A stretch of DNA of 46,946 nt from Verrucomicrobiota bacterium (GCA_038226425.1 JBBRQL010000002.1:1-46946); one strand, 5' to 3'; numbered from the stretch's first letter, positions 11,177-46,536 are shown. The notes: a model not told the origin generated them from the sequence alone. Numbers and translations are program-made.

Positions 11177-11712
11177 CGCTTCTCGGTGCTCAGCACGAGT
11201 CCGCTCACCTGGAGCCCGAGAGTCAACTGCGCGCCCGTCGTGTCGCGCGCGCCCAGCTCCACGGAATCCACGCGCAGGGCGAGCGGGTCGGATTCCACCT
11301 CGTGCAGGAACCGCGTGATGGTCGACAAGCTGCCCGAGGCGTCGACGCGGCATTCGAGCGCCATGAAATCGTCGGCCGTGCGTTTCCACTGCGGCTTGAT
11401 CGAGGTGACGGTCACGCGGCTCACGCGGGACCATCCGTCGAACGCGCCGAGCACGCGGCCTTCGGCGGCCGAGGCATCGGCCGGGAGCGTGTTCGTGCGC
11501 ATCGCGGTCCAGCGGTCGCGGATGCCGCGCTCGCGCTGGAGCATCTGGCGGCCGTCGCCGATGCGCCTCTGCAGGTCGGTGATCGCTTGGCCGCGGCTTT
11601 GCCAGCTCTTGGTGAGCGGCGTGAGCACCAGGTTGTCGGCCGCCCACAGGCCGACGATCCCGAGGGTGACGGCGGTGAGGAGCTGCTGCCGGTTCTTGGG
11701 GTCGAAGTTCAT
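11173..11712 (-). CDS. PilO/GspM-like inner-membrane assembly protein
   Basis: ATG 11712 overlaps the upstream stop by 4 nt. It begins MNFDPKNRQQLLTAVTLGIVGLWAADNLVL (single N-terminal TM), followed by a coiled segment and a ferredoxin-like C-terminal part. Size and position match PilO/GspM. Confidence 0.65.
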   Translation of the reverse strand: MNFDPKNRQQLLTAVTLGIVGLWAADNLVLTPLTKSWQSRGQAITDLQRRIGDGRQMLQRERGIRDRWTAMRTNTLPADASAAEGRVLGAFDGWSRVSRVTVTSIKPQWKRTADDFMALECRVDASGSLSTITRFLHEVESDPLALRVDSVELGARDTTGAQLTLGLQVSGLVLSTEKR

Positions 11713-13151
11713 GGGAGGGACGGGCCCGCGGCCCATCGGAAGTTGAAGTTGAACTGGACCGGCGCCTTGCCGCGGGACTGCTCGAGCTGGAGTTCGGCGA
11801 TGTCGGGCGTGGCGCGGAGCTTCTCCAGCGTCCGGTTCATCGCGACGCTGTCGGTCGCCGTCGCCGAACAGCTCACCTGGCCGGATCCGCGGATCTCGAT
11901 CGTCTTGGCCGTCACGTCGCCGTTCTCCGGGAAGGCCTCGGTCATCCGCCGCAGGATCCCCAGGCTGCGGACCGAGTCGTCGAACCACGGCCGGAAGCGC
12001 TTGATCTGCTGCTGCAAGGTCTCCAGCTCGCGGACCTTCGGCTCCATCCCGGACCACTCGGAGCGGAGCATCGTCAACCGCACCTGTTGCACGATGAACG
12101 CGAAGGCCACGGCGGCGACGACGGCACCGCCGACCTTCGCCGCCAGCATCAGTTTGCCGGAGGAATGCTTGCCCGCGAACTGCTGCCAGGCCGAGACCTG
12201 CGGCGGCAAGAACTCCAGTCCGGTCGCCGTGCCCGCCAGGTATCGCGTCGCCACGGCCATGGCGGCGCCCACCGGGGCCGAGCCGGGGACCTTGAGCCCC
12301 AGTTCGCCCGGAGCGAAGGCGACCACCCGCTCGACCTGCAGGCCGAGGGCCTCTGCGCGCGGAGCCATTTCCGCGGCGAGCCGGTCCGCGGCGGCGCCGG
12401 TGCCGAAGATACGAAGGCGGCGCAGGTCGTCGCGCAAGTTCGGCGGCAACTGGCCCGTGGTCACCCGCAGCTCGCGGCCCACGCGATCGGCCGCGACCTG
12501 GGCCTCGGCTCCTTCGCCTTGGACCGCCGGCTCCAGGATCCTCAGCGCCGCGATGCCCCCGCCGGCGACCGCCAGGAGCGCTATGTCCCGGGCGCCGACG
12601 AAGAGCGCCACCACGCCGCTGCTTCCCGCGTTCTTGCCGGACGGTTGCGATGCCGCGACGCCGATGGTGAACGACACCGGCGTGAGCCGGGCCGCGCGCA
12701 GCATCGACCCGATCTTCGCGATCTGCTCGAGCGGCACCGCCAGCTGCGTCGCATGCACCGGGCCGCCCGCGACCTGCGACCGCGAGACCGCGATGCCCAA
12801 GGCCTCTGGCGGGTAGGGGAAGCCGTTCTCGGCCTCCAGCTGGAGCAGGTCGCGGGCATCCTCGTCGGAAAGCTCCGGCAGCACCGACTGCAGCGAGAGC
12901 ACCCAGCTCGCCGGCAGCGCGACGACGCACCGGCGCTCGCGGATCTCCGCGGCGTCGAGCATCGCTTTGAGCTCGGCCCCGAGGACCGCCGGGTCCGCCT
13001 TGGCCGGATCGGCGCTGAAGGTGCCCGCGGCCGTCTGCGCGATCCCGGCGGCATCGCCGTCGCGTCGGACGACGACCGCTTCGATCCGCGTGCCGTCGAA
13101 GGCCAGGCCGAGCACGGCCTGCGGACGCTGTTTCTGGAACCAGTCCTTCAT
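11709..13151 (-). CDS. PilM-PilN fusion / GspL-like assembly protein (actin-like cytoplasmic domain + TM + periplasmic domain)
   Basis: ATG 13151 overlaps the gspK stop (ATGA). The N-terminal 330 aa or so look like the PilM/GspL actin-like fold (LGLAFDGTRIEAVVV..., VVALFVGARDIALLAV). A TM helix follows (LMLAAKVGGAVVAAVAFAFIV), then a PilN-like tail. Confidence 0.7.
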   Translation of the reverse strand: MKDWFQKQRPQAVLGLAFDGTRIEAVVVRRDGDAAGIAQTAAGTFSADPAKADPAVLGAELKAMLDAAEIRERRCVVALPASWVLSLQSVLPELSDEDARDLLQLEAENGFPYPPEALGIAVSRSQVAGGPVHATQLAVPLEQIAKIGSMLRAARLTPVSFTIGVAASQPSGKNAGSSGVVALFVGARDIALLAVAGGGIAALRILEPAVQGEGAEAQVAADRVGRELRVTTGQLPPNLRDDLRRLRIFGTGAAADRLAAEMAPRAEALGLQVERVVAFAPGELGLKVPGSAPVGAAMAVATRYLAGTATGLEFLPPQVSAWQQFAGKHSSGKLMLAAKVGGAVVAAVAFAFIVQQVRLTMLRSEWSGMEPKVRELETLQQQIKRFRPWFDDSVRSLGILRRMTEAFPENGDVTAKTIEIRGSGQVSCSATATDSVAMNRTLEKLRATPDIAELQLEQSRGKAPVQFNFNFRWAAGPSLP

Positions 13152-14554
13152 CGGGAATCCATCGCCAAAGTTTGCAATCGTGAACGTGCTTGTCTCCCGA
13201 GCGCCCAGCCGAGGTCGCCGAGGTCCTGCCGGTAGATGATCCGCGGCGTGCCGGCCGAGAGATCGAAGACGAACCGTGCGCGCCGGTAGCCGCGGCCGAG
13301 GTGGCCGACGGCGGCGATGTCCGCGGAGAAATGGTAGCTGCGGCCGGTGATGTAGCGTCCGGCGCGGGCGGCGTTCTGCGCGCCGAGCAGCTCGGCGGCC
13401 CATGCCACGGTGTCCCGCTTCCCCGCGTTCGACTGCCGGTAAGCCACGAGCGTCGGGGCGAGCTCGGTGCCGATGCCCGGGATGCAGGCGAGGACCTGTT
13501 CGCCGGCGGTGTTGATGTTCACCAAACCGCTCGGGGCGTTGGTGCCTTGCGCGGAATAGAGGTCGCCCTCGACGAGGGCCAGCTCGTCCGTGGTCATCCG
13601 GCTGCGCATGTAGAACTCGAGCACGCTGTTGATCGTCACCGGTTGCCCGCCTTGTCCGCCACGGAGCTGTCCCATGACCTGGTTCGCCCGCGCCGTGCCG
13701 AGCGCCGTCTGGAGGAGCGTCCGCAGCTGCGCGTTCTGGCCGGCGTTCTGGCGGATGTTGATGCGGGGCGTCCCGTTCGTGGTGGTCAGGGGTTCCTTGG
13801 CGGCGACGGTGACGAACTCGAGGATCCCCGGGTCGAGACGGCCGTTGCGGTCGTCGACCGGGAGGGCGGCCGTGCCATCGTTCTCGTTCACGTCGAGCAC
13901 GCCGTTCCGGTTGAGGTCCTCGCCGTAGAGGATCTCTGCGTCCGCCCCTTCCACCAGACGCAGCTCGTCGATGCTCTCGAAGGGCGCGTTCTTGCAGTGG
14001 TAGGGCGGGTTCTTGAGCAGATAGGTCTCGTCCTCGGCGCCTAGTTCGGTGACCTGGCTGTCGGCGTCGCGCCAATCGACGATCGCGGCGGCCAGCTCCG
14101 GAGTCATGCGCGGCAACAGCTGCAACATCGCGGCGGTGGCCGTGTTCAGGTCGAGCTTCGACGCCTCGTCCACGAGCGCGAAGTACGGGAGGTCCGTGGT
14201 GACCTGCGCCGGCTGCTTCGGGTCGCGGCCGATGAACCAGAACGTGGAATCGCCGACCGCAGCCGCTTCGTGCTGGTAGGTCGCCATATCGGGCAGCACG
14301 CCGGGCGGGTCGAGCTTGCCGATCAGGTAGGTGGCATAGCGGGCCGCGCCTTCGATGGCCTGGTCGGCCTCGAGGCTGGCGGCGCGGTTGTCCGATGCGC
14401 GCAGGTCGAGCGCGGAGGTGTTGCCGAAATAGAGCGCGAGCGCCACCAGACCGAACGCGACCCAGAGCGTGATGATGAGCGCGGATCCGCGTTCGCCGCG
14501 AGGACGCGAGCGGTCGGATGCAAAAGCCGCGGCAGCGCTGCGCGGAAGCCTCAC
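13148..14554 (-). CDS. gspK: type II secretion minor pseudopilin GspK
   Basis: Proposed GTG 14554 overlaps the upstream stop (GTGA). N-terminal RGSALIITLWVAFGLVALALYF. The hallmark GspK helix-hairpin-helix region is present: LLPRMTPELAAAIVDWRDADSQVTELGAEDETYLLKNPPYHCKNAPFESIDELRLVEG, and later INTAGEQVLACIPGIG. Start codon is uncertain. Confidence 0.85.
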   Translation of the reverse strand: MRLPRSAAAAFASDRSRPRGERGSALIITLWVAFGLVALALYFGNTSALDLRASDNRAASLEADQAIEGAARYATYLIGKLDPPGVLPDMATYQHEAAAVGDSTFWFIGRDPKQPAQVTTDLPYFALVDEASKLDLNTATAAMLQLLPRMTPELAAAIVDWRDADSQVTELGAEDETYLLKNPPYHCKNAPFESIDELRLVEGADAEILYGEDLNRNGVLDVNENDGTAALPVDDRNGRLDPGILEFVTVAAKEPLTTTNGTPRINIRQNAGQNAQLRTLLQTALGTARANQVMGQLRGGQGGQPVTINSVLEFYMRSRMTTDELALVEGDLYSAQGTNAPSGLVNINTAGEQVLACIPGIGTELAPTLVAYRQSNAGKRDTVAWAAELLGAQNAARAGRYITGRSYHFSADIAAVGHLGRGYRRARFVFDLSAGTPRIIYRQDLGDLGWALGRQARSRLQTLAMDSR

Positions 14555-15384
14555 GGCGCGCCTCCCGTCGTGCTGGTCGAGCCGGTGCTGTTCGTCACCG
14601 ACGCCACCATGACCGGCACGATCATCTGGATCGACCGGACCGCCTGCGCCGGGCCCTGGCGGACGCCCGGCGCGAAGGGCTCCGGTGCCATGGTGATCTC
14701 GACCTTGATCGCTTTGGGCAACGTCGTGGCGTCGTTGGTGGAGTTCCAAGATGTCCGCCAGGTCGTGCCGTCGTAGAACGACAGGTCGAGCCGGTCCACG
14801 CCGGTCATCAGGCGCTGCTCGTCGGCCTGTTCATCCGAGACGGGGCCGAGGTTTCGCTTCACCACGCGGACGAGGTCGCGGCCGACGGAGGCGGTCCGGT
14901 TCGTCGCGTCGCGCAGCACGTAGGCGACCTTCTGGATGTCGGCCCACGGCGAGCGGTCGCGGAAAACGCCCGACGTGGTGTGGATCTCGGTGCCGACGCT
15001 CTGTTCGTTGATGCCTTCGATCGTGGCGGCGCTGTCGAGGATGCCAGCGTAGGTGCCGCCGGGCATGACGATCCCGGACAGATCGCGGCGCAGCGTGGCC
15101 AGAGCGAGCTCCACCGGCATCGCCTTCGCGGCGGAATCGGCGGTCTTCTGCCGGAGCCGCATGGCGCCGAAGAACACGGCGTTCACGGCCGCCAGCACGA
15201 GCGAGAAGATGACGATGGCGAGCAGGACCTCGATGTGGGTGAAGGCGCGGCACCTGGGAGGCGGGGAAGCGGGGGAGCGGGGGGGCAGGGGAGAAACGAA
15301 GGTCCGCTCGCCCTCCCGCATCTCGGCTACAGGGACGCCCGTCGCGACGGACCGGGCACCGGTCATGGATGGAGGGATGCTCAT
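14551..15384 (-). CDS. gspJ: GspJ-like minor pseudopilin
   Basis: ATG 15384 overlaps the upstream stop (ATGA). The prepilin-type hydrophobic N-terminus RAFTHIEVLLAIVIFSLVLAAV follows an unusually long leader of about 45 aa. An internal start at MREGER is possible. Position is between I-like and K. Confidence 0.7.
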   Translation of the reverse strand: MSIPPSMTGARSVATGVPVAEMREGERTFVSPLPPRSPASPPPRCRAFTHIEVLLAIVIFSLVLAAVNAVFFGAMRLRQKTADSAAKAMPVELALATLRRDLSGIVMPGGTYAGILDSAATIEGINEQSVGTEIHTTSGVFRDRSPWADIQKVAYVLRDATNRTASVGRDLVRVVKRNLGPVSDEQADEQRLMTGVDRLDLSFYDGTTWRTSWNSTNDATTLPKAIKVEITMAPEPFAPGVRQGPAQAVRSIQMIVPVMVASVTNSTGSTSTTGGAP

Positions 15385-15770
15385 GGCTGGCTGCTGTCCA
15401 CGAGCGTGCTGAGGCGCACGTCGTAGTCCTTGCCCTGGACCTGGTAGTTCACCTGCATCGTCAGCAGGCGCAGGGTGTCCTTGTCCCAGGAGCGGCTCTG
15501 CAGGTTCCAGCGGAACGGGCGTGCGCCTTCCTCGGCGACGCCGCTGGAGACGGACTGCTTCCACTGACCCGTGACGATCATCTCGTTCATCAGGCGGTCC
15601 GCGACCCGGGCGGCGACGGATTTCCGCTCGGCGACCTGGCCGGCGAGGTTCGCGACCTGGATCGCCTTGACCGCGACGGGGATCACGATGGCGAGGAACG
15701 CCATCGCGGCGAGCGCCTCGGCCAGCGTGAAGCCGGCTCGGTGCCGGTCACCGGCGGACGAAGGCGACAT
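15381..15770 (-). CDS. gspI: GspI-like minor pseudopilin
   Basis: 129 aa. It begins MSPSSAGDRHRAGFTLAEALAAMAFLAIVIPVAV (prepilin G-F-T-L-x-E motif). Size and position fit GspI. It overlaps the upstream gene by 23 nt. Confidence 0.75.
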   Translation of the reverse strand: MSPSSAGDRHRAGFTLAEALAAMAFLAIVIPVAVKAIQVANLAGQVAERKSVAARVADRLMNEMIVTGQWKQSVSSGVAEEGARPFRWNLQSRSWDKDTLRLLTMQVNYQVQGKDYDVRLSTLVDSSQP

Positions 15771-16356
15771 CGTTGGTCTGGACCTCATAGCTGGCGCGGT
15801 TCTGCGATTGCGTGATCCAGACCGAGCTCCGGACGCGCGGGTCGCGGGCCGGACCGCCGGCGCGTCCGCGTTCGCGGAGACAAAAGCTCTGCGGGCTCGA
15901 TTCGGCGACAAAGCCGTCGGGCTGGAAACGGATCGAGACGGCACCGGCGCCGAGCCCCGGCGTCCCGGGCAGGACCGGCGCCTGCGTTCCGTCGACGCGC
16001 TCGCGCGGATCGAGCTGCAGCTCGACATCCTCGTCGAGCTGGAACGTGACCGCCTTCTCGTCGCGCGCCGAGAAGCCGTACTCCTCGGTGAGGCCGTAGG
16101 CGCGCCGGACAGGATCGAGCCACAGGAGCATGGGCACGCCCTCCGAGACGGCCCGGCTGCGGGCGTAGCGGGCGAGCGCCAGAAATCTGGTCGATTCGGA
16201 ATCAAGATTGCGGCCGCGGAAGAAATTGCCGAGCGACGGGGCGACGAGGGCGATGACGACCATGAGCAGGGTCATCACGAGGATCAGCTCGATGAGCGTG
16301 AACCCCGCGGCCCGGCGTCGTTCAGCGCTTGTTGGAGCTCCAGTTGTGGATGTCAT
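15748..16356 (-). CDS. gspH: GspH-like minor pseudopilin
   Basis: 202 aa, with RRRAAGFTLIELILVMTLLMVVIALVAP followed by SESTRFLALARYARSRAV, which is typical of GspH/FimT-type pseudopilins. Confidence 0.78.
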   Translation of the reverse strand: MTSTTGAPTSAERRRAAGFTLIELILVMTLLMVVIALVAPSLGNFFRGRNLDSESTRFLALARYARSRAVSEGVPMLLWLDPVRRAYGLTEEYGFSARDEKAVTFQLDEDVELQLDPRERVDGTQAPVLPGTPGLGAGAVSIRFQPDGFVAESSPQSFCLRERGRAGGPARDPRVRSSVWITQSQNRASYEVQTNDVAFVRR

Positions 16357-16780
16357 CTTCGGTCCCCATCTGGCCGTCGGGCCCCATCGACGACACGTCG
16401 TAGGAGGTCGGGTTGTTCTTGCCCGGGCACTCGTAGACGTAGTCGTTGCCCCAAGGGTCCTTCGGCACCTCCTTGAGGTAGGGCCCGCGCCAGTTCTTGG
16501 CGTCGCGCGACGCTTGGACGAGGTCGTTGAGGCCGCTCTTGCCCTTCGGATAGAAGCCGTTGTCCACCTCGTAGGCGTCGAGCACGGTCGCGAAGCTGGA
16601 GATCTGCGTCTTCGCGGCGGCCTGGCGGGCCTGCTCGGTGCGGCCGGCGAACTTCGGCACGACGATGGCCGCGAGCACGCCGAGGATGACGAGCACGAGC
16701 AGCAGCTCGATGAGGGTGAAGCCCGCGCGGCGAAGGGGCCTTCGGTTTCCGGTTCTCGGTTTATGGGTCGGAGTTCTCAT
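16322..16780 (-). CDS. gspG: type II secretion major pseudopilin GspG
   Basis: 152 aa. Motifs: RRAGFTLIELLLVLVILGVLAAIVVPKF, DAYEVDNGFYP, WRGPYL, DPWGNDYVY, GPDGQMGTEDDI. These are the canonical GspG signature. Confidence 0.92.
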   Translation of the reverse strand: MRTPTHKPRTGNRRPLRRAGFTLIELLLVLVILGVLAAIVVPKFAGRTEQARQAAAKTQISSFATVLDAYEVDNGFYPKGKSGLNDLVQASRDAKNWRGPYLKEVPKDPWGNDYVYECPGKNNPTSYDVSSMGPDGQMGTEDDIHNWSSNKR

Positions 16781-16790
16781 AGGGAATGGG

Positions 16791-18086
16791 TCACTTGATC
16801 TGGTCCTGGAGCGAGAAGATCGGCAGCACCATGCCGATGACGATGACGCCGACGAGGCCGGCGACGATGAACAACATCAGCGGCTCGGCCAAGGAGACGG
16901 CGGCCTTGAGCTGCCGGTCGAGGTCGCCCTCGGTGACGTTGGCGATGCGGACCAGCTCCTGGTCGAGCCGTCCGCTCTCCTCGGCGACGGCGATCATCTC
17001 CAAGGTCGCGCCGGAGAAGAGCACGCGGCAGTCGCCGAGGCTCGGCCCGAGCTGGCGGCCTTCCTTCACGCGTTCGATCGAGTTCGAGACGGCGTCGACG
17101 AGGATCTGGTTGCCGATGGACCGGCGCGCGACGTTCAGGCCGGCGATCAGCGGGACGCCCGCGCCGAGCAGCGTCCCGAGCATCCGGCAGAAGCGCGACA
17201 TGGCGAACTGCGCCACGAGCGGTCCCACCACCGGCGCCCGCAGGACGCCGCCTTCCCACGAACGCCGGCCCGCCTCGGAGGCGAACCACGTGCGCAGCAT
17301 GAACAGGCCGATGCCGATGCCCAGCGCGCCGAGCAGCCCGTAGGACCGCATCGCGTCGCTGATGCCGACGATGATCCGCGTGATGAGCGGGAGCTGTCCG
17401 CCGAAGCCGGAGAAGATCAGCTGGAACCGCGGGATGAAGAAGACGAGCAGGAAGATGAGGACCGCGACGGCCAGCACCAGGATGATCACCGGATAGAGCA
17501 GCGCGTTGACGACCTTCGACTTCATGTCGCCCTCGCGCGCCTGGAAATCCGCGATCTGCGCCAGCACCACGTCGAGGAAGCCGCCGGTCTCGCCGGCCTC
17601 GACCATGGCGACGTAGACCCGCGGGAAGGTCTCCGGATGCCGCGCCATCGCGGCCGTGAGCGAGAGGCCGTCCACGACGCCGTCGTGGATCTGCCGCCAC
17701 TTCGAGCCGGCCAGCGGCGTCGCCGCTTCCCTGGTCATGATGACCAGCGCGCGGCTCAGCGGGACGCCGGCGGCGAGCAGGCTCGATAGCAGGCGGGTGA
17801 AGTTCTCGAGGATGCGCGGCGTGATCTTGCCGGATCCGCCGAAGGCGATCTTCGGGCCGGCGGCAGGCTTGCCCGCGGCAACGCCGTCCTTGCCGGCTTC
17901 CTTGGGTCTCGACGCGGATTTCGCGGGCTTGGCGGGGCTTCCCGGCCCGCCGCGTTCGGTGAGCCGGATCGGCCGCAGCCCGCGGCCCGACACGAGCTTC
18001 ATCGCCTCTTGGCGGCCGCCGGCCTCGATCTCGCCCTCAAGGGCCCGACCGTCGGCTTGCAGCGCTTTGTAGGTGAAGAGCGGCAT
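16791..18086 (-). CDS. gspF: type II secretion / type IV pilus platform protein GspF/PilC
   Basis: Starts at MPLFTYKALQADGRALEGEIEA (ATG 18086, 5 nt after the gspE stop). It has two GspF repeats (FTRLLSSLLAAGVPLSRAL and FCRMLGTLLGAGVPLIAGL) and three TM segments. The track ORF extends further upstream across gspE. Confidence 0.92.
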   Translation of the reverse strand: MPLFTYKALQADGRALEGEIEAGGRQEAMKLVSGRGLRPIRLTERGGPGSPAKPAKSASRPKEAGKDGVAAGKPAAGPKIAFGGSGKITPRILENFTRLLSSLLAAGVPLSRALVIMTREAATPLAGSKWRQIHDGVVDGLSLTAAMARHPETFPRVYVAMVEAGETGGFLDVVLAQIADFQAREGDMKSKVVNALLYPVIILVLAVAVLIFLLVFFIPRFQLIFSGFGGQLPLITRIIVGISDAMRSYGLLGALGIGIGLFMLRTWFASEAGRRSWEGGVLRAPVVGPLVAQFAMSRFCRMLGTLLGAGVPLIAGLNVARRSIGNQILVDAVSNSIERVKEGRQLGPSLGDCRVLFSGATLEMIAVAEESGRLDQELVRIANVTEGDLDRQLKAAVSLAEPLMLFIVAGLVGVIVIGMVLPIFSLQDQIK

Positions 18087-18090
18087 GGCG

Positions 18091-19860
18091 TCAGGCGCGG
18101 TCCACCGCGAGCTCGGCCACCGATGTTTCGCCGCCGGCGCGACCGTCCACCGTGGAGCGCGAGACCTCCTTGGCGGTGGTGACGCTGAGCACCTCCTCGA
18201 CGGTGGTGATCCCTTGGCGGACCAGGCGCCAGCCGTCCTCGGCCAACGTCCGCATGCCATCGCGCCGGCCGGCGTCGCGGATCTCGTCGGTGGACGCGTT
18301 CCGGAGGATCAGCTGCCGGATCTCGTTGCTGGAATCCATCCACTCGTAGATGGCGTGACGTCCGTGGAAGCCGGTGTTCCGGCACTCGCGGCAGCCGACC
18401 GAGCGGTAGGTGGGATGCGACGCAGGGATGCCGAGCCGGACCTTGAAGGTCTGAGCCGTCGGCGAGTCGTCCACCACTTTGCACTGTTTGCAGAGGACGC
18501 GGACGAGGCGCTGCGCCAAGACGGCCTCGAGCGACGAGGCGACAAGGTAGGGCTCGACGCCCATGTCGACGAGGCGCGTGCAGGCACCGGCGGCGTCGTT
18601 GGTGTGCAGCGTGGAGAAGACGAGGTGGCCGGTGAGCGACGCCTGCACCGCGATCTGCGCGGTCTCGGCGTCGCGGATCTCGCCGATGAGGATGACGTCC
18701 GGATCGTGGCGCAGGATGGAGCGGAGCCCGCGGCCGAAGGTCAGGCCGGACTTCTCGTTCACCTGGATCTGGTTGACGCCGCGGAGCTGGTACTCGATCG
18801 GGTCCTCGATGGTGATGATCTTGCGCTCGGTGTCGTTGATGGCGTTGAGCGCGGTGTAGAGCGTGGACGTCTTGCCGGAACCGGTCGGCCCGGTGACGAG
18901 CACGATGCCGTGCGGAAGCTGGAGGACGTGGTCGAAGCAGGAGAGCTCCCGGGCGTCCATGCCGAGGTCCTTCATCCCGCGGAGCGTGGAGTTCTGGCGC
19001 AACAGACGCATCACGACGGCCTCGCCGTGGAGCATGGGGATGATCGAGACGCGGATGTCGACCTCGGCGTCCTCGATGCGGACCTTGATGCGGCCGTCCT
19101 GCGGCAGGCGTTTCTCGGCGATGTTGAGATGGCTGAGGATCTTGACTCGGGAGACGATGGCCGGCTGGAAGCGCTTGATCTGCGCCGGCACGGGGACCTC
19201 CTGGAGCACGCCGTCGATGCGGTAGCGGATGCGGAGCTCGTCCTCGAACGGTTCGAGGTGGATGTCGGACGCGCGCAGCTCGATGGCGTCCTTCAGGAAC
19301 TGGTTGACGAAGCGGATGATCGAGGCGTCCTCGGCCTTCGAATCGAGGTCGCCGTCGTCTTCCGCGCCCTCGTCCACCACCTGGAAGCCGGCACCTTCCT
19401 CGGCCAAGGTGTCGATGGTGTCGGCGCCGACGCCGAGACGCTTCTTCATCTCGCGCACGATCGCCTCGCGCGGTGCGAGCACCGGCTGCAGGCGCAGGCC
19501 GGTCATCGTCTTCAGCACGTCGAGCCCCTGCGTGGAGAAGAGGCGCGAGGTGGCGATCTCGACGGCGCCGTCGACGCGGCGGAGCGGGAGCAGCTCCTCC
19601 TTCAACAGGATGCGCGCCGGGAAGAGCGAGAGCACCTGCTTGTCGGGATCGACGTCCTCGAGGTCGGAGAACGGCACCTCGTATTCCGCCGCGAGCCAGC
19701 GCAGCACCGCGGCCTCCGAGCCGTCGGGCACCGCCGCCGGTCGGCAGGACAGGGAAAGCGCGTCGGCGGCCGACAGTTGTCTGTCGGCCACCATGCGTGC
19801 GACCAGTTGCGAGAGAGGACCGGCGTCAGCCATGCGTTTGCCGTCGGGGATGGGGCCCAC
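18091..19860 (-). CDS. gspE: type II secretion ATPase GspE (PilB-like)
   Basis: Walker A VTGPTGSGKTSTLYTAL. Asp box and Walker B (DPDVILIGEIRD). His box (GHLVFSTLHTND). Tetracysteine motif CKQC...CRECRNTG. N-terminal T2SSE_N-like domain. Start is either GTG 19860 or ATG 19833. Confidence 0.93.
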   Translation of the reverse strand: MGPIPDGKRMADAGPLSQLVARMVADRQLSAADALSLSCRPAAVPDGSEAAVLRWLAAEYEVPFSDLEDVDPDKQVLSLFPARILLKEELLPLRRVDGAVEIATSRLFSTQGLDVLKTMTGLRLQPVLAPREAIVREMKKRLGVGADTIDTLAEEGAGFQVVDEGAEDDGDLDSKAEDASIIRFVNQFLKDAIELRASDIHLEPFEDELRIRYRIDGVLQEVPVPAQIKRFQPAIVSRVKILSHLNIAEKRLPQDGRIKVRIEDAEVDIRVSIIPMLHGEAVVMRLLRQNSTLRGMKDLGMDARELSCFDHVLQLPHGIVLVTGPTGSGKTSTLYTALNAINDTERKIITIEDPIEYQLRGVNQIQVNEKSGLTFGRGLRSILRHDPDVILIGEIRDAETAQIAVQASLTGHLVFSTLHTNDAAGACTRLVDMGVEPYLVASSLEAVLAQRLVRVLCKQCKVVDDSPTAQTFKVRLGIPASHPTYRSVGCRECRNTGFHGRHAIYEWMDSSNEIRQLILRNASTDEIRDAGRRDGMRTLAEDGWRLVRQGITTVEEVLSVTTAKEVSRSTVDGRAGGETSVAELAVDRA

Positions 19861-28071: not shown

Positions 28072-29310
28072 TCAACGCGATGACGCGGGGTCCGGAGGCA
28101 ACGCGCCGGCGACGTGCGTGAAATCGAAATCTCTCACCGCCTCGGCTGCGAGCGTCCCGAGCCTGCGACGCAGCCCGATGACGTTGCCCGCCTCGGTCGG
28201 ATGGTTCCGGTTCGCGACGAAGATCACGGACGTGCCGGAGAACGGATCGATCCAAAGGCTCGTCCCGGTCCAGCCGGTGTGGCCGAAGCTACCGATGGGG
28301 AAATGAGCGCCGCGCGGGCCGGCATAGGGCGAATCGATGTCCCAACCGAACCCGCGCCGCGCCATCCCGGGCGGCGATTGCACGGACGTCATGAGCTTCA
28401 CCGTCTCCGGTCGCAGAACGCGCCGTCCGTCGAGCTCGCCGCCGCCGAGCATCATCCTGGCGAAGCGGGCCAGGTCATCGGCGGTCGTGAACAATCCGGC
28501 GTGCCCGGCCACGCCGCCCATACGCCGCGATGTCGGGTCATGCACGACGCCGCGCAGCAGGCCCTCCGCCCGATGTTCGGTCGGCGCGATGCGACCGCTG
28601 CCCGCGGCGGTGAAGGCGACCCCGGTCGCCGGGTCGAAGGGCCGGAATCCCGTGTCCTTCATCCCGAGCGGACCGAAGACCTCGCGGGCACAGAACTGGT
28701 CGAGCGGTTCGCCAGCCACGCGCCGGACGATCTCGCCGAGCAGGATGAAGTTGACGTCGCTGTACCGGGACTTCGTGCCGGGCGGTTCGACCAGCTTCTC
28801 GCCACAGGCGAGGGCGATGGCGGCAGCGCGGCCCGTCCACTCCTTTTGCAGCGAGAGCCCCGGCGGGAGGCCGGAGACGTGCGTTAGCAACTGCCGGACG
28901 GTGACGGCTTCCTTCCCGTTCGCGGCGAATTCCTGCAGATAGCGCCGCACCGGTGCTTCCACGTCGATGCGGCCTTGCTCGACGAGCTTCATCACCGCGG
29001 TCGTCGTCGCGATCACCTTGGTGAGCGACGCGGCGTCGAAGATCGTGTCCTCGGTCATCGGTTCGTGGACCGGCTCGACAGCGCGGACTCCGAAGGCCTT
29101 GTGGTACGCGGCGCCGCGACGCTCGAGCCAGAGCACGCCGCCCGGCGTCTGGCCTTCGCTGATCGAGGCGAGGATCGCCGCATCGATCTCCGCGAGCTTC
29201 TCGGAACGGAACTCGGTCGTGGCCGCGGGCGCGACCCGCGGGACCGTCCGGCACGAGACAAGGCAGACCGCGAGCACGACCGGCAACAACGCCAAGGAGG
29301 AGCGGAACAT
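28072..29310 (-). CDS. serine hydrolase, beta-lactamase/PBP4-like family (probable lipoprotein)
   Basis: Start MFRSSLALLPVVLAVCLVSC (lipobox). S-x-x-K motif in FDAASLTKVIATT. YSDVNFILLG (Y-x-N) and a later HTGWTG (H/K-T/S-G-like) motif. Confidence 0.85.
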   Translation of the reverse strand: MFRSSLALLPVVLAVCLVSCRTVPRVAPAATTEFRSEKLAEIDAAILASISEGQTPGGVLWLERRGAAYHKAFGVRAVEPVHEPMTEDTIFDAASLTKVIATTTAVMKLVEQGRIDVEAPVRRYLQEFAANGKEAVTVRQLLTHVSGLPPGLSLQKEWTGRAAAIALACGEKLVEPPGTKSRYSDVNFILLGEIVRRVAGEPLDQFCAREVFGPLGMKDTGFRPFDPATGVAFTAAGSGRIAPTEHRAEGLLRGVVHDPTSRRMGGVAGHAGLFTTADDLARFARMMLGGGELDGRRVLRPETVKLMTSVQSPPGMARRGFGWDIDSPYAGPRGAHFPIGSFGHTGWTGTSLWIDPFSGTSVIFVANRNHPTEAGNVIGLRRRLGTLAAEAVRDFDFTHVAGALPPDPASSR

Positions 29311-29371
29311 GCCGGACCCTGGACCTGGGAAGCGGACCAAGTCGAGCCACGGCAAACGCCGTTCGAGCTTC

Positions 29372-41107: not shown

Positions 41108-41137
41108 TTGACGAACAAACTACCGTGGTAGTATTAC
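41108..41137 (+). promoter_or_regulatory. putative sigma70-type promoter with embedded BlaI-family operator palindrome
   Basis: TTGACG (41108-41113), then 18 nt, then TATTAC (41132-41137), 20 nt upstream of the blaI-like ATG. The spacer contains the perfect inverted repeat ACTACC-GT-GGTAGT (41119-41132), of TAC-N4-GTA type. Confidence 0.55.
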
Positions 41138-41156
41138 CGCGGTCGTCGTCCACGCC

Positions 41157-41543
41157 ATGAACTCTCCTTCCCACCGTCTCGGCGATCTCCAGCTCCGCAT
41201 CCTCCAGGTGCTCTGGGCCGCGCCCGACTCTTCCGTCTCCGATGTCCACACCGCGCTCAAGCCCGAGCGCGAGCTCGCCCACACCACGGTCGCCACCATG
41301 CTGCGCAAGATGGAGGCCCGGAGCCTGGTCGCCCACCGTGAGGAAGGACGCAGCTTCCTCTACCGCGCCCTGGTCGCCTCCGAGGACGTGAACCGCAGCG
41401 TCGGCCGGCATCTCGTCGAGCGGCTCTTCGAGGGCAGCCTCGCCGACGCGGTGAGCCATCTGCTCACGACGCGCGACGTGAGCCGCGAGGAGCTCGACCA
41501 GTTGGCGAAGCTCATCGCCGACGCGAAACGGAGGACCAAGTGA
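41157..41543 (+). CDS. BlaI/MecI/CopY-family transcriptional repressor
   Basis: 128 aa. Winged-helix N-terminus LGDLQLRILQVLWAAPDSSVSDVHTAL...HTTVATMLRKMEARSLVAHREEGRSFLYRALV. C-terminal dimerisation helix. It overlaps the next gene (GTGA). Confidence 0.9.
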   Translation: MNSPSHRLGDLQLRILQVLWAAPDSSVSDVHTALKPERELAHTTVATMLRKMEARSLVAHREEGRSFLYRALVASEDVNRSVGRHLVERLFEGSLADAVSHLLTTRDVSREELDQLAKLIADAKRRTK

Positions 41544-44500
41544 ACCTCGACCTGCGCTGGTGGGGCCGTCTCGCCAGCCTGCTCGCGACCGAGGCGGCGC
41601 TCGTGGTCGCGGTCGCTTGGGCGGCCGAGCGGTGGCTCCGGTCGCCCCAGGTCCGGCGCGCTCTGTGGCAGACGGCCCTGCTCGCCGTCGCGCTGCTGTG
41701 GACCGCCGAACTCGCCGGCCTGCGCGGGCAATTGGCGAAGCTCCGCCCGGTGCCTGAACCCGCGCGGACGCTCCAAGTCCGGCTGCTCGATTCCTTCGCC
41801 GGCCAGCCGGTTGCCGAGCCGCTCTCCGAGCCCTTCCCGGACGAAGCGGACTTCGCCGCACCGCCACCGGCACCGAGGCCGGTCTGGTGGCCGGGATGGC
41901 TGTGGCTCGCCGGGCTCGCACTGTTATCCGGGCGCTTGGCATTTGCCCACGCCGGATTGGCGTGGTGCTCGTGGCGGTCGCGCGATCACGGCACCGGACG
42001 ACGCGCCAACGTCTTGGATCAGCACCCACTCCAAGACGCCGGTGCGCCCGCACCCGGTACATCGGATCCAACCGCCGCGACCTTGGCCGCTCAAGCGACT
42101 GCCGATGCCCTCCGCCGTCCGCTCGGCCTGGGCAAGGTCCGTGTGCTCACCTGGCCGCATCTGCGCGGGCCGGTGGCGTTCGGCGTGCTGCGCCCGACCG
42201 TGGCGTTGCCGGGCGATTTTGCGGACCGCTTCTCCCCCGCCCAACGCGAGGCGATGCTCGCTCACGAACTCGCCCACTTGGCGGCGCGGGACCCGCTGTG
42301 GTTGGCGATCGCCGACGTCGTCTGCGCCGTCGCGTGGTGGCATCCCGCCGTGTGGTGGGCGCGGAGAAAGCTCCGAGCGTCCTGCGAGAGCGCCGCGGAC
42401 GAGGCCGCAGCGCTGGTCCCCGAAGGACGCGCCGCGCTCGCGGAGTCCCTCGTCACCTTCGGACGCGAGTTGGCTTCGCCCCGCTGGGCGCGCGGCATCG
42501 GCGTCGCCGGCGACGGCATGAAGTCGCAGCTCGCCCGCCGCGTGAAGGCGTTGCTGGACGGCTCGGGAGACTGGCGCGCGGTGCGGCCATCGCGTCTGTG
42601 GCTGGCCCGCGGCATGGCCTTCGCGGCGACCGCGATGCTCATGGCGGTGCCATGGCCGGGGACGGGCGGTCCGGTGTTCGCAGATGTGATCGCAGCGGCC
42701 CAAGCCCCCGGGCCCGCGACCGAGGTGATCGGGACCGACCCGACGTTGCCGCGTATCGTCAAAGTGGAGGTGCTTGGAGACAAGGTGAAGACCATCCATC
42801 ACCTCGTCCCCGGGAATGACGGCAGTCCGACCGTTCCCGTGGTCTTCTCCAGGCGCGACCCGTTCGATGGATGGCGGTCCTTCGGCTACGAAGTCCCGAC
42901 CGGTCGGGTGGAATCGGTGGCACCGGCGGTCTATGTGGCGTTGCGTGACCCGCTGGCCGAACCCGCCGCGACCCAGCGCGCAACAAACGGGAGCGCTTTG
43001 TTCACTCGCCGCTACAAGTTGGAACCCGCCGATTTCCCTGCGTATGTCGCTGCGGTCCTTGGACTCGACCCGTCAGCATCCGCCACCACGAACCGGCCCG
43101 TGCAAGTCCAGCAGGATCTCCGCCGCATCTTTGAGGCCGCAGGGGTGGTCTTCCCGGAACCGACCGTGCAACCGACTGGCGGGGATACGGGCCTCGCATG
43201 TTTCTTCAACGACCGCACAGGCGACCTGCTCGTGCGTGCCACGGCAACGGATCTCGACGTGATCGAGCGCCTCATCCAAGCGCTGGTTCCGCCGCCGACA
43301 ACAGAGATCGCTGACCCAGCAATGCTGAAGACCAAGGCCAACGATGAGCGCGCCGAAATCGAATCCAAGTTGCGCTCTAAAGACGCCGAGCTCGCCATCC
43401 AAGCGCTCAACACGCCTCCGTTTTCCGGGGCGGTTGCGGGAGCAGCGACCAACATCTTCTCCAGCATCCAGCCAATCCAGCCGATGACCGTGTCGGACGT
43501 GCTCGGCGATCCGCAGTTCCGCGCCGCCCCGGAGGCTTTGGGGAAACCCGACGCGCTGACCGGTCTCGAATCCAAGCGCCGGACCAAGGACGTCGAGATC
43601 GCCGCGCTCCGCACCCGTTACAAGGACAACCACCCCAAGGTGCGCGAAGCCTTGGCGGTCCAAGCCGAGCTCCAGAAGCAGATCCAAGCACTGACACCGA
43701 AGCCGGCGACACCGCCGGCCTTCACGGCCGTGGTCACGCCGCGGTCCACCGGGCCGGTGCCGGAAGCGGCCCGAAGCGGGTCGTCCCGCCAGATCCAGCT
43801 TGAGATCCAGTTCGCCGAAGTCACCGAGCGCGGCACGGACGACCTCGGGCTCGACTGGCTTTTCGGCCAGTCGCCGACCAACAACCCGGCGTTGCAGAGC
43901 GGCCCGGCCACAAACCTTCTCACCGACCCCGAGGCGCCGCACGGCCAGAACCTGCGCGTGGACCTCCTTCGCACCGAAGGCCAATCGGCCACGATCACGG
44001 CGGCGCAGTTCGCCGCGCTCCGCAAGCGGCTCGAAGGCCGCGGTGGCGTGGATTTCTTGGCCGCGCCGAAGGTCATCACGACCTCGGGACGGCAGGCCCG
44101 CGTCTCGGTCAGCGACGTGAAGACCATCGTGACCGGAGTGGACGCGACCTCGGGGACCGCCACGAACCAGGCCGGCATCAACTACCAGACCGAGCAGGTC
44201 GCGGTCGGGCCGACGGTGGACATCATCCCTGTCCTTGAAGGCGCGGACGCCCGGCTCGGCATCATCGCCACGGTCACGGAGTTCTTGGGTTACGACCAGC
44301 CGAAGCCGGGCCAAGAAGTGGCCGTGCCCACGCCCGGCGGCAAGCCGGTGAAGGGAGTCGTGCCGTTGCCTCGCCTGCGGGTGCGGGCGACCCATGCCGA
44401 CTCGGTGGTGAAACCCGGCGAGACCATCGCGCTGCGTGGCCCGCTGGTGAGCGACACGGTGCGCATGGTGGACAAGGTCGTGGGGCTCGGCGACGTGCCG

Positions 44501-44605
44501 TTGCTCGGGCGGCTGTTCCGCAGCGAAAGCAAGAGCACGGTGCGCAAGCGGCTCTACGTCTTCGTCACGCCGACCGAAATCACCGCCACCGGGGAGAAGA
44601 AATAG
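41540..44605 (+). CDS. BlaR1/M56-family membrane metalloprotease fused to a periplasmic coiled region and a C-terminal secretin domain
   Basis: The N-terminal 370 aa or so have 4 TM helices and the HExxH motif in REAMLAHELAHLAARDPLW (M56). A secretin-N-like unit follows (ACFFNDRTGDLLVRATATDLDVIERLIQAL), then coiled segments including RTRYKDNHPKVREALAVQAELQKQIQAL. The C-terminal secretin core is IQLEIQFAEV...FLAAPKVITTSGRQARVSV...GETIALRGP...GDVPLLGRLFRSESK...RLYVFVTPTEI. Confidence 0.85.
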   Translation: MNLDLRWWGRLASLLATEAALVVAVAWAAERWLRSPQVRRALWQTALLAVALLWTAELAGLRGQLAKLRPVPEPARTLQVRLLDSFAGQPVAEPLSEPFPDEADFAAPPPAPRPVWWPGWLWLAGLALLSGRLAFAHAGLAWCSWRSRDHGTGRRANVLDQHPLQDAGAPAPGTSDPTAATLAAQATADALRRPLGLGKVRVLTWPHLRGPVAFGVLRPTVALPGDFADRFSPAQREAMLAHELAHLAARDPLWLAIADVVCAVAWWHPAVWWARRKLRASCESAADEAAALVPEGRAALAESLVTFGRELASPRWARGIGVAGDGMKSQLARRVKALLDGSGDWRAVRPSRLWLARGMAFAATAMLMAVPWPGTGGPVFADVIAAAQAPGPATEVIGTDPTLPRIVKVEVLGDKVKTIHHLVPGNDGSPTVPVVFSRRDPFDGWRSFGYEVPTGRVESVAPAVYVALRDPLAEPAATQRATNGSALFTRRYKLEPADFPAYVAAVLGLDPSASATTNRPVQVQQDLRRIFEAAGVVFPEPTVQPTGGDTGLACFFNDRTGDLLVRATATDLDVIERLIQALVPPPTTEIADPAMLKTKANDERAEIESKLRSKDAELAIQALNTPPFSGAVAGAATNIFSSIQPIQPMTVSDVLGDPQFRAAPEALGKPDALTGLESKRRTKDVEIAALRTRYKDNHPKVREALAVQAELQKQIQALTPKPATPPAFTAVVTPRSTGPVPEAARSGSSRQIQLEIQFAEVTERGTDDLGLDWLFGQSPTNNPALQSGPATNLLTDPEAPHGQNLRVDLLRTEGQSATITAAQFAALRKRLEGRGGVDFLAAPKVITTSGRQARVSVSDVKTIVTGVDATSGTATNQAGINYQTEQVAVGPTVDIIPVLEGADARLGIIATVTEFLGYDQPKPGQEVAVPTPGGKPVKGVVPLPRLRVRATHADSVVKPGETIALRGPLVSDTVRMVDKVVGLGDVPLLGRLFRSESKSTVRKRLYVFVTPTEITATGEKK

Positions 44606-44850: not shown

Positions 44851-46536
44851 ATGTTCCGCACTGCCGTCCTGCTGGCCCTCGCTTCCGCGCTGCTCTGGCG
44901 CGCGTCCGCGGGCGCGGATGACGACTTCATCGCCGCCTACAACCTCATCCAGCAGTCCGACACCTTCCGCGAGACCGGCCAGGTCAGCTCCGCCCGTCGT
45001 GGTTATGCCGAGGCCTTGACCCGGCTCCGCGAGCTGCAGCGCAGCTATCCCACGTGGAACGAGCGTGTGATCGCCTACCGTCTGCGCTACGTCGCCGAGA
45101 AGATCGGCACGCTGCCGGAGACGGCCGCCGCCGCTGAGTTGCCCGCGGATCCGGCCACCGCGCCGACCGCCGCCGCGACCGTCCGCGATCCGTCCGAGCT
45201 GGCGCCGAGCGGCGAGGTCATCACCCAGTTCAACACGCTCAACTCGCAGATCGCACAGCTCGGCGCGGACAAGAAGCTCCTGGAGGCCAAGCTCCGCGAG
45301 GCCCTCACCGCCCAGCCGGTGCCCATCGATCCGCGCGAGCTCCAGCAGGCCGTCGAGAAGATCAGCGCGCTCCAGGTCACCAACAAGGTCCTGCTCGCCT
45401 CGCTGGAGCAGCAGCAGGCCGAGCGGAAGAACCTGGTCGAGAAGGTCGTCGCCGAAGAAGCACAGAAGGCGCTGAACGATGCCAACCGCCAGTTGCTCGC
45501 ACAGAAGAAAGGTGCCGCCGCGCTCGCCAAGGAGAAGACCGACCTCGAGGCCGCGCTCAAGCGGCTGCAGGACGGCGACCTCAAGCAGCTCAAGGGCGAG
45601 AACAGCACGCTCAAGTCGCAGGTGACCGAGCTGCGTTCCGAGACCGAGCGCGGCAAGCTCGTCGCCGACCTCTCCGCCCGCCTCGGCAAGCTGCAGCTCA
45701 AGCTCGACGACACCGCCAAACAGAACGAGCTGCTGCTCGCCGACAAGACGAAGCTCGAGAAGCAGGTCGACGACCTCCGCGCCCGCCAGAGCGAGGAGAG
45801 CATCGTCCGCGTCAACAAGCTGGAGACCGACCTCGCCGTGGCCCGCGCCGATGCCGGACGCAACGCCGCCAAGGCCGAGGACATCGCCGTCGCGCTGGAC
45901 AAGGAGAAGACCACCCGCGGACGCCTGGAACAGGACAACCGGACGCTCACCGCGCGTGTCACCGTCCTCACCGGAGAGCTCGCTGCCGCCAAGGCGCTGG
46001 AGACCGCGCTTGCCGCCGAGAAGACCGAGCGCGCCGAGGTCGAGGCCCAGCTGAAGGCCGCCGAGGAACGCTTGGCCGCGACCCGCCTCGCCGCCCCTGT
46101 CGCCGCGATTCCCGGCGCGGCCCCGCAGCCGCCTTCCGCCGGCGATGCCGCCGTCGTCGCGCAGCTCCGCGTGCTCGAGGGCGAGACCACCCGGCTACGC
46201 GGCTCCTTGCGCGACAGCCACGCCCGCGAGACAGAGCTGAAGACCTTGCTCGCCGAGGCCGACGGCCAACGCATCCGGTGGGAGCAGGGCAAGGCCGAGC
46301 TGACGAAGCGCCTTGCGCTGGCCGAGCAGGCCGCCGCCGCGACGCCGTCCGCGAAGGACGGCCGGACCATCCGCGCCCTCGAGATGAAAGTCCGCGAGCT
46401 GGAGCAGCAACGCGATACCTTGGCCAAGAAGCTCGTCGCCGCCAGCCGCCGCGTGGGCACGCAGCTCGCGGCCGCGCGGACCTCGCGGCTCGGCTCCCCA
46501 CGCGACCGCGTGGTGGAGTTCTATCAAGAGCGGTGA
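44851..46536 (+). CDS. secreted long coiled-coil protein with TPR-like N-terminal helices, function unknown
   Basis: Signal peptide MFRTAVLLALASALLWRASAGA. About 450 aa of heptad-like Ala/Glu/Lys/Leu-rich sequence (LKGENSTLKSQVTELRSETERGKLVADLSARLGKLQLKLDD...). Clean 561-aa ORF. Confidence 0.7.
   Translation: MFRTAVLLALASALLWRASAGADDDFIAAYNLIQQSDTFRETGQVSSARRGYAEALTRLRELQRSYPTWNERVIAYRLRYVAEKIGTLPETAAAAELPADPATAPTAAATVRDPSELAPSGEVITQFNTLNSQIAQLGADKKLLEAKLREALTAQPVPIDPRELQQAVEKISALQVTNKVLLASLEQQQAERKNLVEKVVAEEAQKALNDANRQLLAQKKGAAALAKEKTDLEAALKRLQDGDLKQLKGENSTLKSQVTELRSETERGKLVADLSARLGKLQLKLDDTAKQNELLLADKTKLEKQVDDLRARQSEESIVRVNKLETDLAVARADAGRNAAKAEDIAVALDKEKTTRGRLEQDNRTLTARVTVLTGELAAAKALETALAAEKTERAEVEAQLKAAEERLAATRLAAPVAAIPGAAPQPPSAGDAAVVAQLRVLEGETTRLRGSLRDSHARETELKTLLAEADGQRIRWEQGKAELTKRLALAEQAAAATPSAKDGRTIRALEMKVRELEQQRDTLAKKLVAASRRVGTQLAAARTSRLGSPRDRVVEFYQER

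Follow-up and report, generated by a model that had tools for sequence, protein, structure and literature searches.

We describe here a two-gene cassette at positions 41,157 to 44,605 of a 46,946-nucleotide stretch of Verrucomicrobiota DNA (JBBRQL010000002.1; the whole stretch is called the window below). The first gene encodes a BlaI-like repressor and the second encodes an M56 zinc protease fused, in a single polypeptide, to a C-terminal secretin core. With moderate confidence, we read the pair as an autoregulated BlaI/BlaR1-type cassette in which a secretin of the PilQ/Amuc_1098 lineage replaces the penicillin-binding sensor, and in which a secretin ring would signal to the protease and so set off regulated proteolysis. 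It was observed that an operator lies in the cassette's own promoter throughout the family, that no gene accompanies the cassette as a conserved neighbour, and that the protease and secretin parts are both strongly conserved and diverge together. The two genes are as follows.

41157–41543, plus strand: blaI-like repressor gene; 128 residues; winged helix and dimerisation domain, no cysteine; Pfam Penicillinase_R.
41540–44605, plus strand: M56–secretin fusion gene; 1021 residues; GTG start, overlapping the blaI stop (GTGA).

Both open reading frames (ORFs) had been proposed by an earlier, sequence-only reading of this DNA, together with their overlap and the BlaI assignment of the first, and all of this held. 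The tetranucleotide GTGA at 41540–41543 is common to the two ORFs, the TGA stop of blaI overlapping the GTG start of the fusion gene. An overlap of this type (ATGA or GTGA) was present in 50 of 56 related loci, and in practically every locus whose 5' side was intact, blaI lay directly upstream of the M56 gene. Read from the sequence, the repressor gene and the fusion gene are translationally coupled. In four loci (L047, L048, L050 and L054), one blaI is followed by two tandem M56 genes. The second of these in L047 carries the secretin core, while the first has an insertion in the N-terminal region of M56, seen as a split match to the M56 hidden Markov model (HMM).

The product of the first gene showed a Pfam match to Penicillinase_R of 98 bits (cut-off 22.6) that covered model positions 1–114 of 115. 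It has the N-terminal winged helix, the C-terminal dimerisation helices and the length (about 120–140 residues) that characterise family PF03965, and its residues 2–120 could be aligned without gaps to residues 2–120 of crystallised MecI (1OKR). The C-terminal CxCxxxxCxC copper/zinc site of the CopY subtype was absent from the 128-residue protein, and the NCBIfam model CopY_TcrY gave 58 bits, below its cut-off of 122. Hence, as it contains no cysteine, the repressor belongs to the BlaI/MecI/CopY family but falls outside the CopY metal-binding subtype.

The N-terminal part of the fusion protein is a membrane-embedded protease. Its features are given below; structural statements refer to an AlphaFold2 (AF2) model of the full protein, built with an alignment of 72 sequences and scored by the predicted local distance difference test (pLDDT).

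41540–41959, plus strand: transmembrane helices 1–3 (TM1–TM3) and first periplasmic loop, residues 1–140; hydropathy peaks at residues 8–30, 41–61 and 115–139; AF2 helices with pLDDT >90.
42047–42589, plus strand: predicted cytoplasmic zinc-protease domain, residues 170–350; HELAH at 42263–42277, E283/D287; Pfam M56; Foldseek match to BlaR1.
42593–42655, plus strand: TM4, residues 352–372, predicted to lead to the periplasm; hydropathy; AF2 helix at residues 350–369.

Pfam assigned residues 201–337 to Peptidase_M56 (PF05569) with 71.9 bits (cut-off 31). The HELAH motif, already noticed as intact in the earlier reading, occupies residues 242–246, and the residues of the HExxH...ExxxD zinc site (H242, E243, H246, E283 and D287) were invariant in the 72 aligned homologs. 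When the protein was compared with the NCBIfam models of known sensors, blaR1_generic aligned its positions 159–250 to residues 199–290 with 42 bits against a cut-off of 400, and sensor_MecR1 scored 14 bits against a cut-off of 1200. No match to the penicillin-binding sensor PF00905 was found in the 1021-residue protein. The absence of PF00905 and the low BlaR1 and MecR1 scores therefore indicate an M56 protease that is not a BlaR1/MecR1 equivalog. Foldseek matched the N-terminal half to the cryo-electron microscopy structures of Staphylococcus aureus BlaR1 (8EXR, 8EXS and 8EXQ) with a probability of 1.00. A phmmer search of PDB sequences with the M56 part alone returned nothing at E <= 0.01, and because of this the kinship to BlaR1 is based on the Pfam and NCBIfam profiles together with Foldseek.

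The loop at residues 31–40 (RWLRSPQVRR) is positively charged, which points to an N-out topology, as in BlaR1; the loop between TM2 and TM3 is rich in prolines and acidic residues. Hydropathy, the positive-inside rule and the AF2 helices were in agreement. They predict four TM helices, a cytoplasmic protease between TM3 and TM4, and residues 373–1021 outside the cytoplasm. The earlier proposal that everything after TM4 lies outside the cytoplasm was thus borne out, as a prediction, by hydropathy, charge and AF2.

The part that follows TM4 contains three folded regions.

42989–43297, plus strand: Secretin-N-like alpha/beta domain, residues 484–586; weak Pfam match; AF2 beta-alpha-beta-beta-alpha, most 10-residue pLDDT blocks about 90 or above.
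43547–43693, plus strand: helical hairpin, residues 670–718; AF2 helices at residues 670–693 and 699–718, pLDDT about 95; within a lineage-specific insertion (residues 587–749).
43787–44602, plus strand: N3-like unit and secretin core, residues 750–1021; contains VVGLGDVPLLGRLFRSES; Pfam Secretin, GspD model, phmmer and Foldseek.

A secretin core in the position of the sensor, the central claim of the earlier reading, was borne out by sequence profiles, comparison of structures and comparative genomics. The Pfam Secretin domain (PF00263) was matched at residues 831–1012 with 63.0 bits (cut-off 27.5; model positions 2–166 of 169), and positions 336–591 of the 600 in the NCBIfam GspD model aligned to residues 750–1015. 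phmmer against PDB sequences matched 18 solved secretins. When the full AF2 model was compared with the PDB by Foldseek, ExeD, GspD, PulD, RcpA, PilQ, BfpB, InvG and phage pIV were matched with a probability of 1.00, followed by BlaR1. For a second AF2 model, restricted to residues 484–1021 (mean pLDDT 80.8), all 37 Foldseek matches at E <= 1e-3 were secretins, the next match having E = 0.057. The full model was confident for the M56 module, residues 484–586, the hairpin at 670–718 and residues 750–1021, with low-confidence linkers at residues 393–483, 587–669 and 722–746.

The segment VVGLGDVPLLGRLFRSES lies at residues 979–996. Its residues G984, P987, G990, F993 and R994 are at least 90% conserved, and it aligns to the VP-LGD-P-LG-LF motif of ExeD, presumably the membrane-associated amphipathic helical loop of secretins. 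Elsewhere in the core, F915, G917 and Y918 (within the family signature TEFLGYD), P944 and G960 are invariant.

The upstream unit described earlier as secretin-N-like proved right in kind but not as a Pfam domain: residues 484–586 are homologous to the N-domain found immediately before the core in the standalone Amuc_1098-like secretins of the same phylum (about 900 residues), while Pfam Secretin_N, at residues 522–585, scored 16.7 bits, under its cut-off of 28.2. The unit is present 0–3 times among relatives and is wholly missing in L013 and P0013. A segment said to resemble polysaccharide co-polymerases did not survive the analysis; TIGR03007 gave E = 0.26, and the segment is an optional insertion that was aligned in 16–42% of the homologs. 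No Pfam match to an N0 domain was found in the fusion protein, and at its N-terminus the M56 membrane module replaces the signal peptide. An anti-phage function or phage origin of the fusion was considered and rejected, there being no PADLOC match and a sole PHROG match to a generic pIV C-terminal motif.

An apparent fusion of this kind may arise trivially from a frameshift, a chimeric assembly or a pseudogene, when a blaR-like gene and a secretin gene beside it are run together. Continuity of the ORF, which the earlier reading had named as a point to confirm, was therefore looked at in independent data. The identical 1021-residue protein is present on an independently assembled Logan contig (SRR19962015) with the same neighbours, i.e., the upstream fatty-acid-hydroxylase-like gene, blaI and the downstream 561-residue gene. 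A database search gave 322 relatives at E <= 1e-5; domain architecture was checked in the best 120, and 84 of these carried both Pfam domains. A genome scan, with one genome per GTDB species, gave at least 533 confirmed stretches, from which 76 loci were kept. With HMMs built from the alignment, the secretin core was detected in the same stop-to-stop frame in 43 of the 53 complete M56 ORFs of these loci, so that the single-ORF architecture occurs in dozens of species-level genomes. The G+C content at third codon positions of the fusion ORF (0.84) is typical of the genes of the window, and the catalytic and secretin motifs are invariant. The artefact explanation is refuted by these results, and we give it practically no weight.

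Over 2556 pairs of sequences, the identities of the protease and of the secretin correlated with r = 0.84. Such co-divergence fits a long co-inheritance of the two halves. Among the 72 homologs, the mean identity to the query was 61% for the protease domain (occupancy 0.93), 51% for the N3-like unit (occupancy 0.99) and 54% for the barrel (occupancy 0.98). The optional parts were the N-domain (occupancy 0.67), the hairpin (0.42) and the second linker (0.16). The family as a whole ranges from about 650 residues, with just a short linker between M56 and the core, to about 1550 residues. Some members carry further modules: P0089 and P0078 have SecDF-P1-head, ExbD-like and tetratricopeptide repeat (TPR) modules between M56 and the secretin core, P0062 has a thioredoxin-like domain after the core, and P0006 has an ExbD-like domain in that position.

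Almost all of the 76 kept loci came from metagenome-assembled genomes of Verrucomicrobiota. [quoted passage not shown] The records L014, L030, L046 and P0016, labelled Kapaibacterium, Saccharimonadales and Limnocylindria, carry the cassette at 39–47% identity and are probably mis-binned contigs. When a cultured host was sought among the cluster members that were looked up, all those with an organism name were proteins of metagenome-assembled genomes. Public annotations of the family read 'M56 family metallopeptidase', 'beta-lactamase regulating signal transducer' or 'hypothetical protein', and full-text literature searches yielded no mention of a secretin fused to M56 or BlaR1.

The window has a type II secretion system (T2SS) with a secretin of its own, and the origin of the fused core was examined against it. 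The identity between the fused core and the window's T2SS secretin core was only 22%. In NCBIfam, the best match of the fused core was the Amuc_1098 family (type IV pilus outer-membrane protein) with 86.7 bits, far below the equivalog cut-off of 750; standalone relatives scored 364 bits on the same model. In a neighbour-joining distance tree, the fused and standalone cores formed one clade (35% mean identity), apart from the T2SS cores of the lineage (21%), and the standalone secretins nested inside the fused ones. By its sequence, then, the secretin core is of the PilQ/Amuc_1098 lineage and not the GspD of the window's T2SS. The standalone secretins (L056, L057, L060, L068–L073 and L075) have about 900 residues and start with a signal peptide and a TPR-like N-terminal region. 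In common with the fusion they have the preceding N-domain and the motifs TEFLGYD, LPLPRLRVR and VPVLGD-P-GRLFRSES, but differ from it in that the fusion has the M56 module in place of the signal peptide and TPR region, and no pilus genes nearby. Amuc_1098 (PilQ) of Akkermansia muciniphila has been located in the outer membrane by immuno-electron microscopy (PMC4960237). This location offers the best homology support for a possible outer-membrane placement of the fused core.

Autoregulation was suggested by the region upstream of blaI, in which three elements were read.

41108–41113, plus strand: −35-like hexamer TTGACG of a putative blaI promoter; tentative, as a simple sigma-70 scan called no full promoter.
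41118–41133, plus strand: putative operator box 1, AACTACCGTGGTAGTA; BlaI/CopY-type dyad TACC-nn-GGTA.
41135–41144, plus strand: degenerate second box, TACCGCGGTC; 14 nucleotides downstream of box 1, with one mismatch in the 3' arm.

The box AACTACCGTGGTAGTA sits between the TTGACG hexamer and a TA-rich stretch and is unique in the 46.9-kb window. Its arms (TACC/GGTA) differ by one base from the classical TACA-nn-TGTA box, and it is a candidate BlaI site. In 52 of 57 related loci, a conserved operator, AACTACCnnGGTAGTA, was present about 35 nucleotides before blaI. It takes the form of a TAC-N4-6-GTA dyad, almost always (A/T)ACTAC(C/T)nn(A/G)GTAGTA, with conserved arms and a free centre, and many related loci have a second box at an offset of +14 nucleotides. 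For comparison, such a pattern occurred in 2.0% of 15,200 random 172-nucleotide windows from the same loci. Within 1.06 Mb, 45 strict boxes were counted, 44 of them in blaI promoters; the lone box elsewhere (L071:9717) lies within a 1059-residue ORF and was treated as chance.

When metagenomes were scanned with AACTACCNNGGTAGTA, at least 120 loci were obtained, of which about 20 were blaI promoters, the remaining matches being indistinguishable from chance. The same box appeared upstream of blaI genes whose M56 partners have no secretin; hence, the box is a property of this BlaI clade. In the metagenome contigs L082, L133, L167, L174 and L193, which have the box before blaI, the M56 partners end in charged, Glu/Arg-rich coiled-coil or low-complexity tails.

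The operator data bear on the main rival explanation, namely that the cassette regulates the secretin as its product and does not use it as the sensor. BlaI would then keep down the amount of an outer-membrane pore that might be dangerous, M56 would sense something else, for instance through its periplasmic loop or its membrane helices, as has been proposed for PetP, and the cassette would raise the number of pores for uptake or export of macromolecules. The sole operator within about 8 kb of any locus is that of the cassette's own promoter, so that the only conserved output is the M56–secretin protein itself. In three other contexts that were examined, the flanking genes were unrelated between loci (pantoate transferase, penicillin amidase, NIPSNAP and others), which makes the apparently autoregulated two-gene cassette the conserved unit and also suits a self-limited channel. 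So do the conservation of the secretin core, which equals that of the protease, and the ability of sensor-less M56 proteases such as PetP to sense through other parts. On the other hand, no secretion or pilus genes (T2SS, type IV pilus, type III secretion or phage export) flanked the cassette in those three contexts, and a channel of this kind would have no linked pilus, pseudopilus or ATPase machinery, though all well-studied secretins work with one. Moreover, a covalent inner-membrane tether on every subunit is of no obvious use to a plain channel, and BlaI may have unlinked targets. On balance, a self-limited effector channel appears rather unlikely.

In the reading that we favour, signalling through the secretin, four helices would hold the polypeptide in the inner membrane with the zinc protease in the cytoplasm, while the part after TM4 would cross the periplasm, its C-terminal core assembling a secretin ring in the outer membrane. 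The trigger would be a change in the ring or the tether, such as assembly, gating, pore occupancy or loss of the link between the membranes, passed to the protease via TM4. The protease would then cleave the BlaI-like repressor and the cassette would be de-repressed, with positive feedback; unlinked genes with the same box might be de-repressed as well. By homology, an outer-membrane multimer, regulated proteolysis and envelope sensing are each plausible. The strongest form of this proposal is that one polypeptide serves both as the inner-membrane signalling protease and as a subunit of the outer-membrane ring, so that a dozen or more tethered M56 proteases would read pore assembly, gating or occupancy and convert it to repressor cleavage. 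We put this forward tentatively, as possible but open to serious doubt. If true, a single component would here carry signals across the envelope, in a manner confined to Verrucomicrobiota and different in mechanism from Fec-type cell-surface signalling, Rcs and Psp.

Several observations weigh against signalling from a ring to the protease. The periplasmic loop between TM2 and TM3, which couples the sensor to the protease in BlaR1, is poorly conserved here and has low AF2 confidence. BlaR1 was solved as a dimer (8EXP, C2-symmetric), as against 12–15 identical chains in the solved secretin entries, a difference that bears on the stoichiometry of any coupling. The tether varies between orthologs from about 60 to about 900 residues and is variable in content, which argues against any mechanism that needs a fixed geometry. 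In the repressor, H101–L102 align with the scissile bond of MecI (N101|F102), so that N-F is not kept; at this aligned position H101-L102-L103 is at least 95% invariant across 57 orthologs, and a conserved but different cleavage site is possible. No target gene beyond the cassette was found within about 8 kb of any locus, and the metagenome scan could not separate true sites from the remainder. Lastly, the TM-scores of the AF2 monomer against solved secretin protomers did not exceed 0.42 (0.38 for the second model). We attribute these low values to the use of a monomer model, because the solved protomers adopt their shape only as parts of a 12–15-mer; a monomer model cannot establish barrel geometry.

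The variable tether is also a difficulty for a special case of the favoured reading, namely a checkpoint of assembly or envelope integrity. The protease would be active while the secretin is unassembled or the link between the membranes is broken, and would be silenced once the ring is assembled and tethered, thereby reporting outer-membrane damage or failed assembly, in analogy with the Psp stress induced by secretins. A single polypeptide is predicted to connect both membranes, and positive autoregulation would suit a loop that makes more protein until assembly is achieved. Proteins that range from 650 to 1550 residues are, however, hard to square with a distance ruler, and we regard the checkpoint as quite improbable.

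The cassette was compared with known systems. BlaR1 and MecR1 cleave BlaI and MecI following a signal at the extracytoplasmic domain (reviewed in PMC7593790). The BlaI/BlaR1 and MecI/MecR1 pairs of Staphylococcus and Bacillus share with the present cassette a Penicillinase_R repressor, a four-helix M56 protease with a BlaR1-like fold, the adjacency of the two genes and a dyad operator of the TACA/TGTA class in their own promoter. They differ in that the cassette has a secretin core in place of the PF00905 sensor, TACC/GGTA arms in the operator and H-L in place of N-F in the repressor. Besides, the present host is Gram-negative, so that the 'sensor' would sit in a second membrane, and no operator ties a beta-lactamase or PBP2a gene to the cassette.

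Also related are the non-canonical BlaIR systems, i.e., Rv1846c/Rv1845c of Mycobacterium tuberculosis, those of M. abscessus, PvmSR of Pseudomonas aeruginosa, CenIR of Clostridioides difficile and PetR/PetP of Synechocystis, which likewise combine a BlaI-family repressor with an M56 protease devoid of a beta-lactam sensor. Their signals are not antibiotics, and petR/petP have the same stop/start overlap as the cassette. PetP, an M56 protease without a penicillin-binding domain, degrades its partner PetR on copper (bioRxiv 10.1101/2020.07.31.226407). In contrast to the present protein, in which about 650 residues with a complete secretin core follow TM4, those proteases end soon after TM4 or have short unstructured tails.

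In a 2026 survey of about 15,000 InterPro entries, 254 M56 architectures were distinguished, TonB_C being the second commonest and true beta-lactam sensors accounting for about 6% (PMC13492132). For about 96% of the M56 proteins in InterPro, a BlaI-like gene is no more than five genes away, and a secretin architecture is not among the nine M56 architectures with at least 100 InterPro entries; the word 'secretin' is absent from the survey (PMC13492132). The closest conceptual relatives are M56–TonB_C proteins (TonB1 and TonB10 of Bacteroides thetaiotaomicron) and M56–Plug/CarbopepD_reg proteins, in which M56 is likewise fused to a periplasmic or outer-membrane-directed domain. The M56–TonB_C proteins would link the state of an outer-membrane protein to a cytoplasmic protease, and have been noted in Bacteroides as possible signal transducers. 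TonB_C, however, does no more than contact receptors of the outer membrane, while a secretin core forms a pore there itself, as a multimer. M56 sensors with other C-terminal domains are thus already known; what is new is an M56 switch with a secretin as its extracytoplasmic module.

Two systems without homology to the cassette are instructive as analogies. In FecA-FecR-FecI, the state of an outer-membrane protein is relayed to transcription via an inner-membrane protein and proteolysis; VirB10 is a single polypeptide with an inner-membrane anchor and a part that inserts into the outer membrane. The present protein differs from both in that receiver, transducer and protease are one polypeptide. 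The output of Fec-type signalling is the release of a sigma factor, whereas that proposed here by analogy would be cleavage of a repressor.

The GspD secretins of T2SS resemble the fused protein in having N-domain units followed by a core, and solved GspD, PulD and ExeD were the top sequence and fold matches. The fusion differs from them in lacking N0, the signal peptide and the S-domain, and in being encoded outside a T2SS operon. The T2SS cluster of the window ends more than 20 kb upstream of the cassette. It lies on the minus strand at 13148–19860 and comprises GspE (18091–19860), GspF (16791–18260), GspG (16322–16780), GspH-like (15748–16356), GspJ-like (14551–15564) and GspK-like (13148–14749) genes; the ORFs at 10460–13148 had no Pfam match. 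Its secretin is split into two genes, both on the minus strand. The gene at 8857–10473 encodes N0 and three Secretin_N units (538 residues), and that at 7628–8845 encodes the core (405 residues), which has a GGAG ribosome-binding site of its own and begins like a signal peptide. The best 120 homologs of the 405-residue core were 290–462 residues long (nearly all about 390–460) and contained the Secretin domain alone; since all of them are core-only, the split T2SS secretin is the rule in the lineage and not a frameshift.

A gene of the serine beta-lactamase/esterase family PF00144 lies at 28072–29355 on the minus strand, about 12 kb from the cassette. Links of the cassette to the T2SS or to this gene were considered and rejected, as no operator was found near either and the T2SS core has the low identity given above. 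For the PF00144 gene, the absence of a nearby BlaI-type box means that there is no sign of control by the cassette. On the downstream side, one further gene was noted.

44851–46536, plus strand: coiled-coil protein, 561 residues; signal-peptide-like N-terminus; no Pfam match, weak SMC-like coiled-coil matches only.

The sequence-only reading had remarked on a secreted coiled-coil protein following the pair. The gene is indeed present and has the signal-peptide-like start, but it is not a conserved partner: a homolog in this position was found only in the four closest loci (L001–L004), and unrelated neighbours stood there in the three other contexts. The idea of a conserved downstream partner was therefore rejected, and the gene is probably outside the conserved system. 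At the other end of the window, a plus-strand gene at 3786–6950 encodes a 1054-residue protein with a TrwB/TraG/HerA-type coupling-protein ATPase domain (residues 404–732). It is preceded by a familyless ORF of 258 residues and possibly belongs to, or is left over from, a conjugative or DNA-translocation element.

Roughly 94% of M56 'BlaR-like' proteins have no beta-lactam sensor, and recent surveys have raised the question of which signals they answer to (PMC13492132); the cassette would offer a concrete case. The secretin core acts as a portable module in this lineage, since the T2SS has it as a gene of its own and the cassette has it joined to M56. The known secretins are passive, gated outlets for machines of secretion, pilus formation and phage export, and BlaR1-type proteases are known mainly as antibiotic sensors. 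Their conserved, autoregulated union, without genes for a secretion machine, suggests either that a secretin ring may act as a receiver of signals or that a proteolytic switch may control the dosage of a pore. Either outcome would widen the known roles of secretins and would provide an example of a protein that is predicted to reside in both membranes at once.

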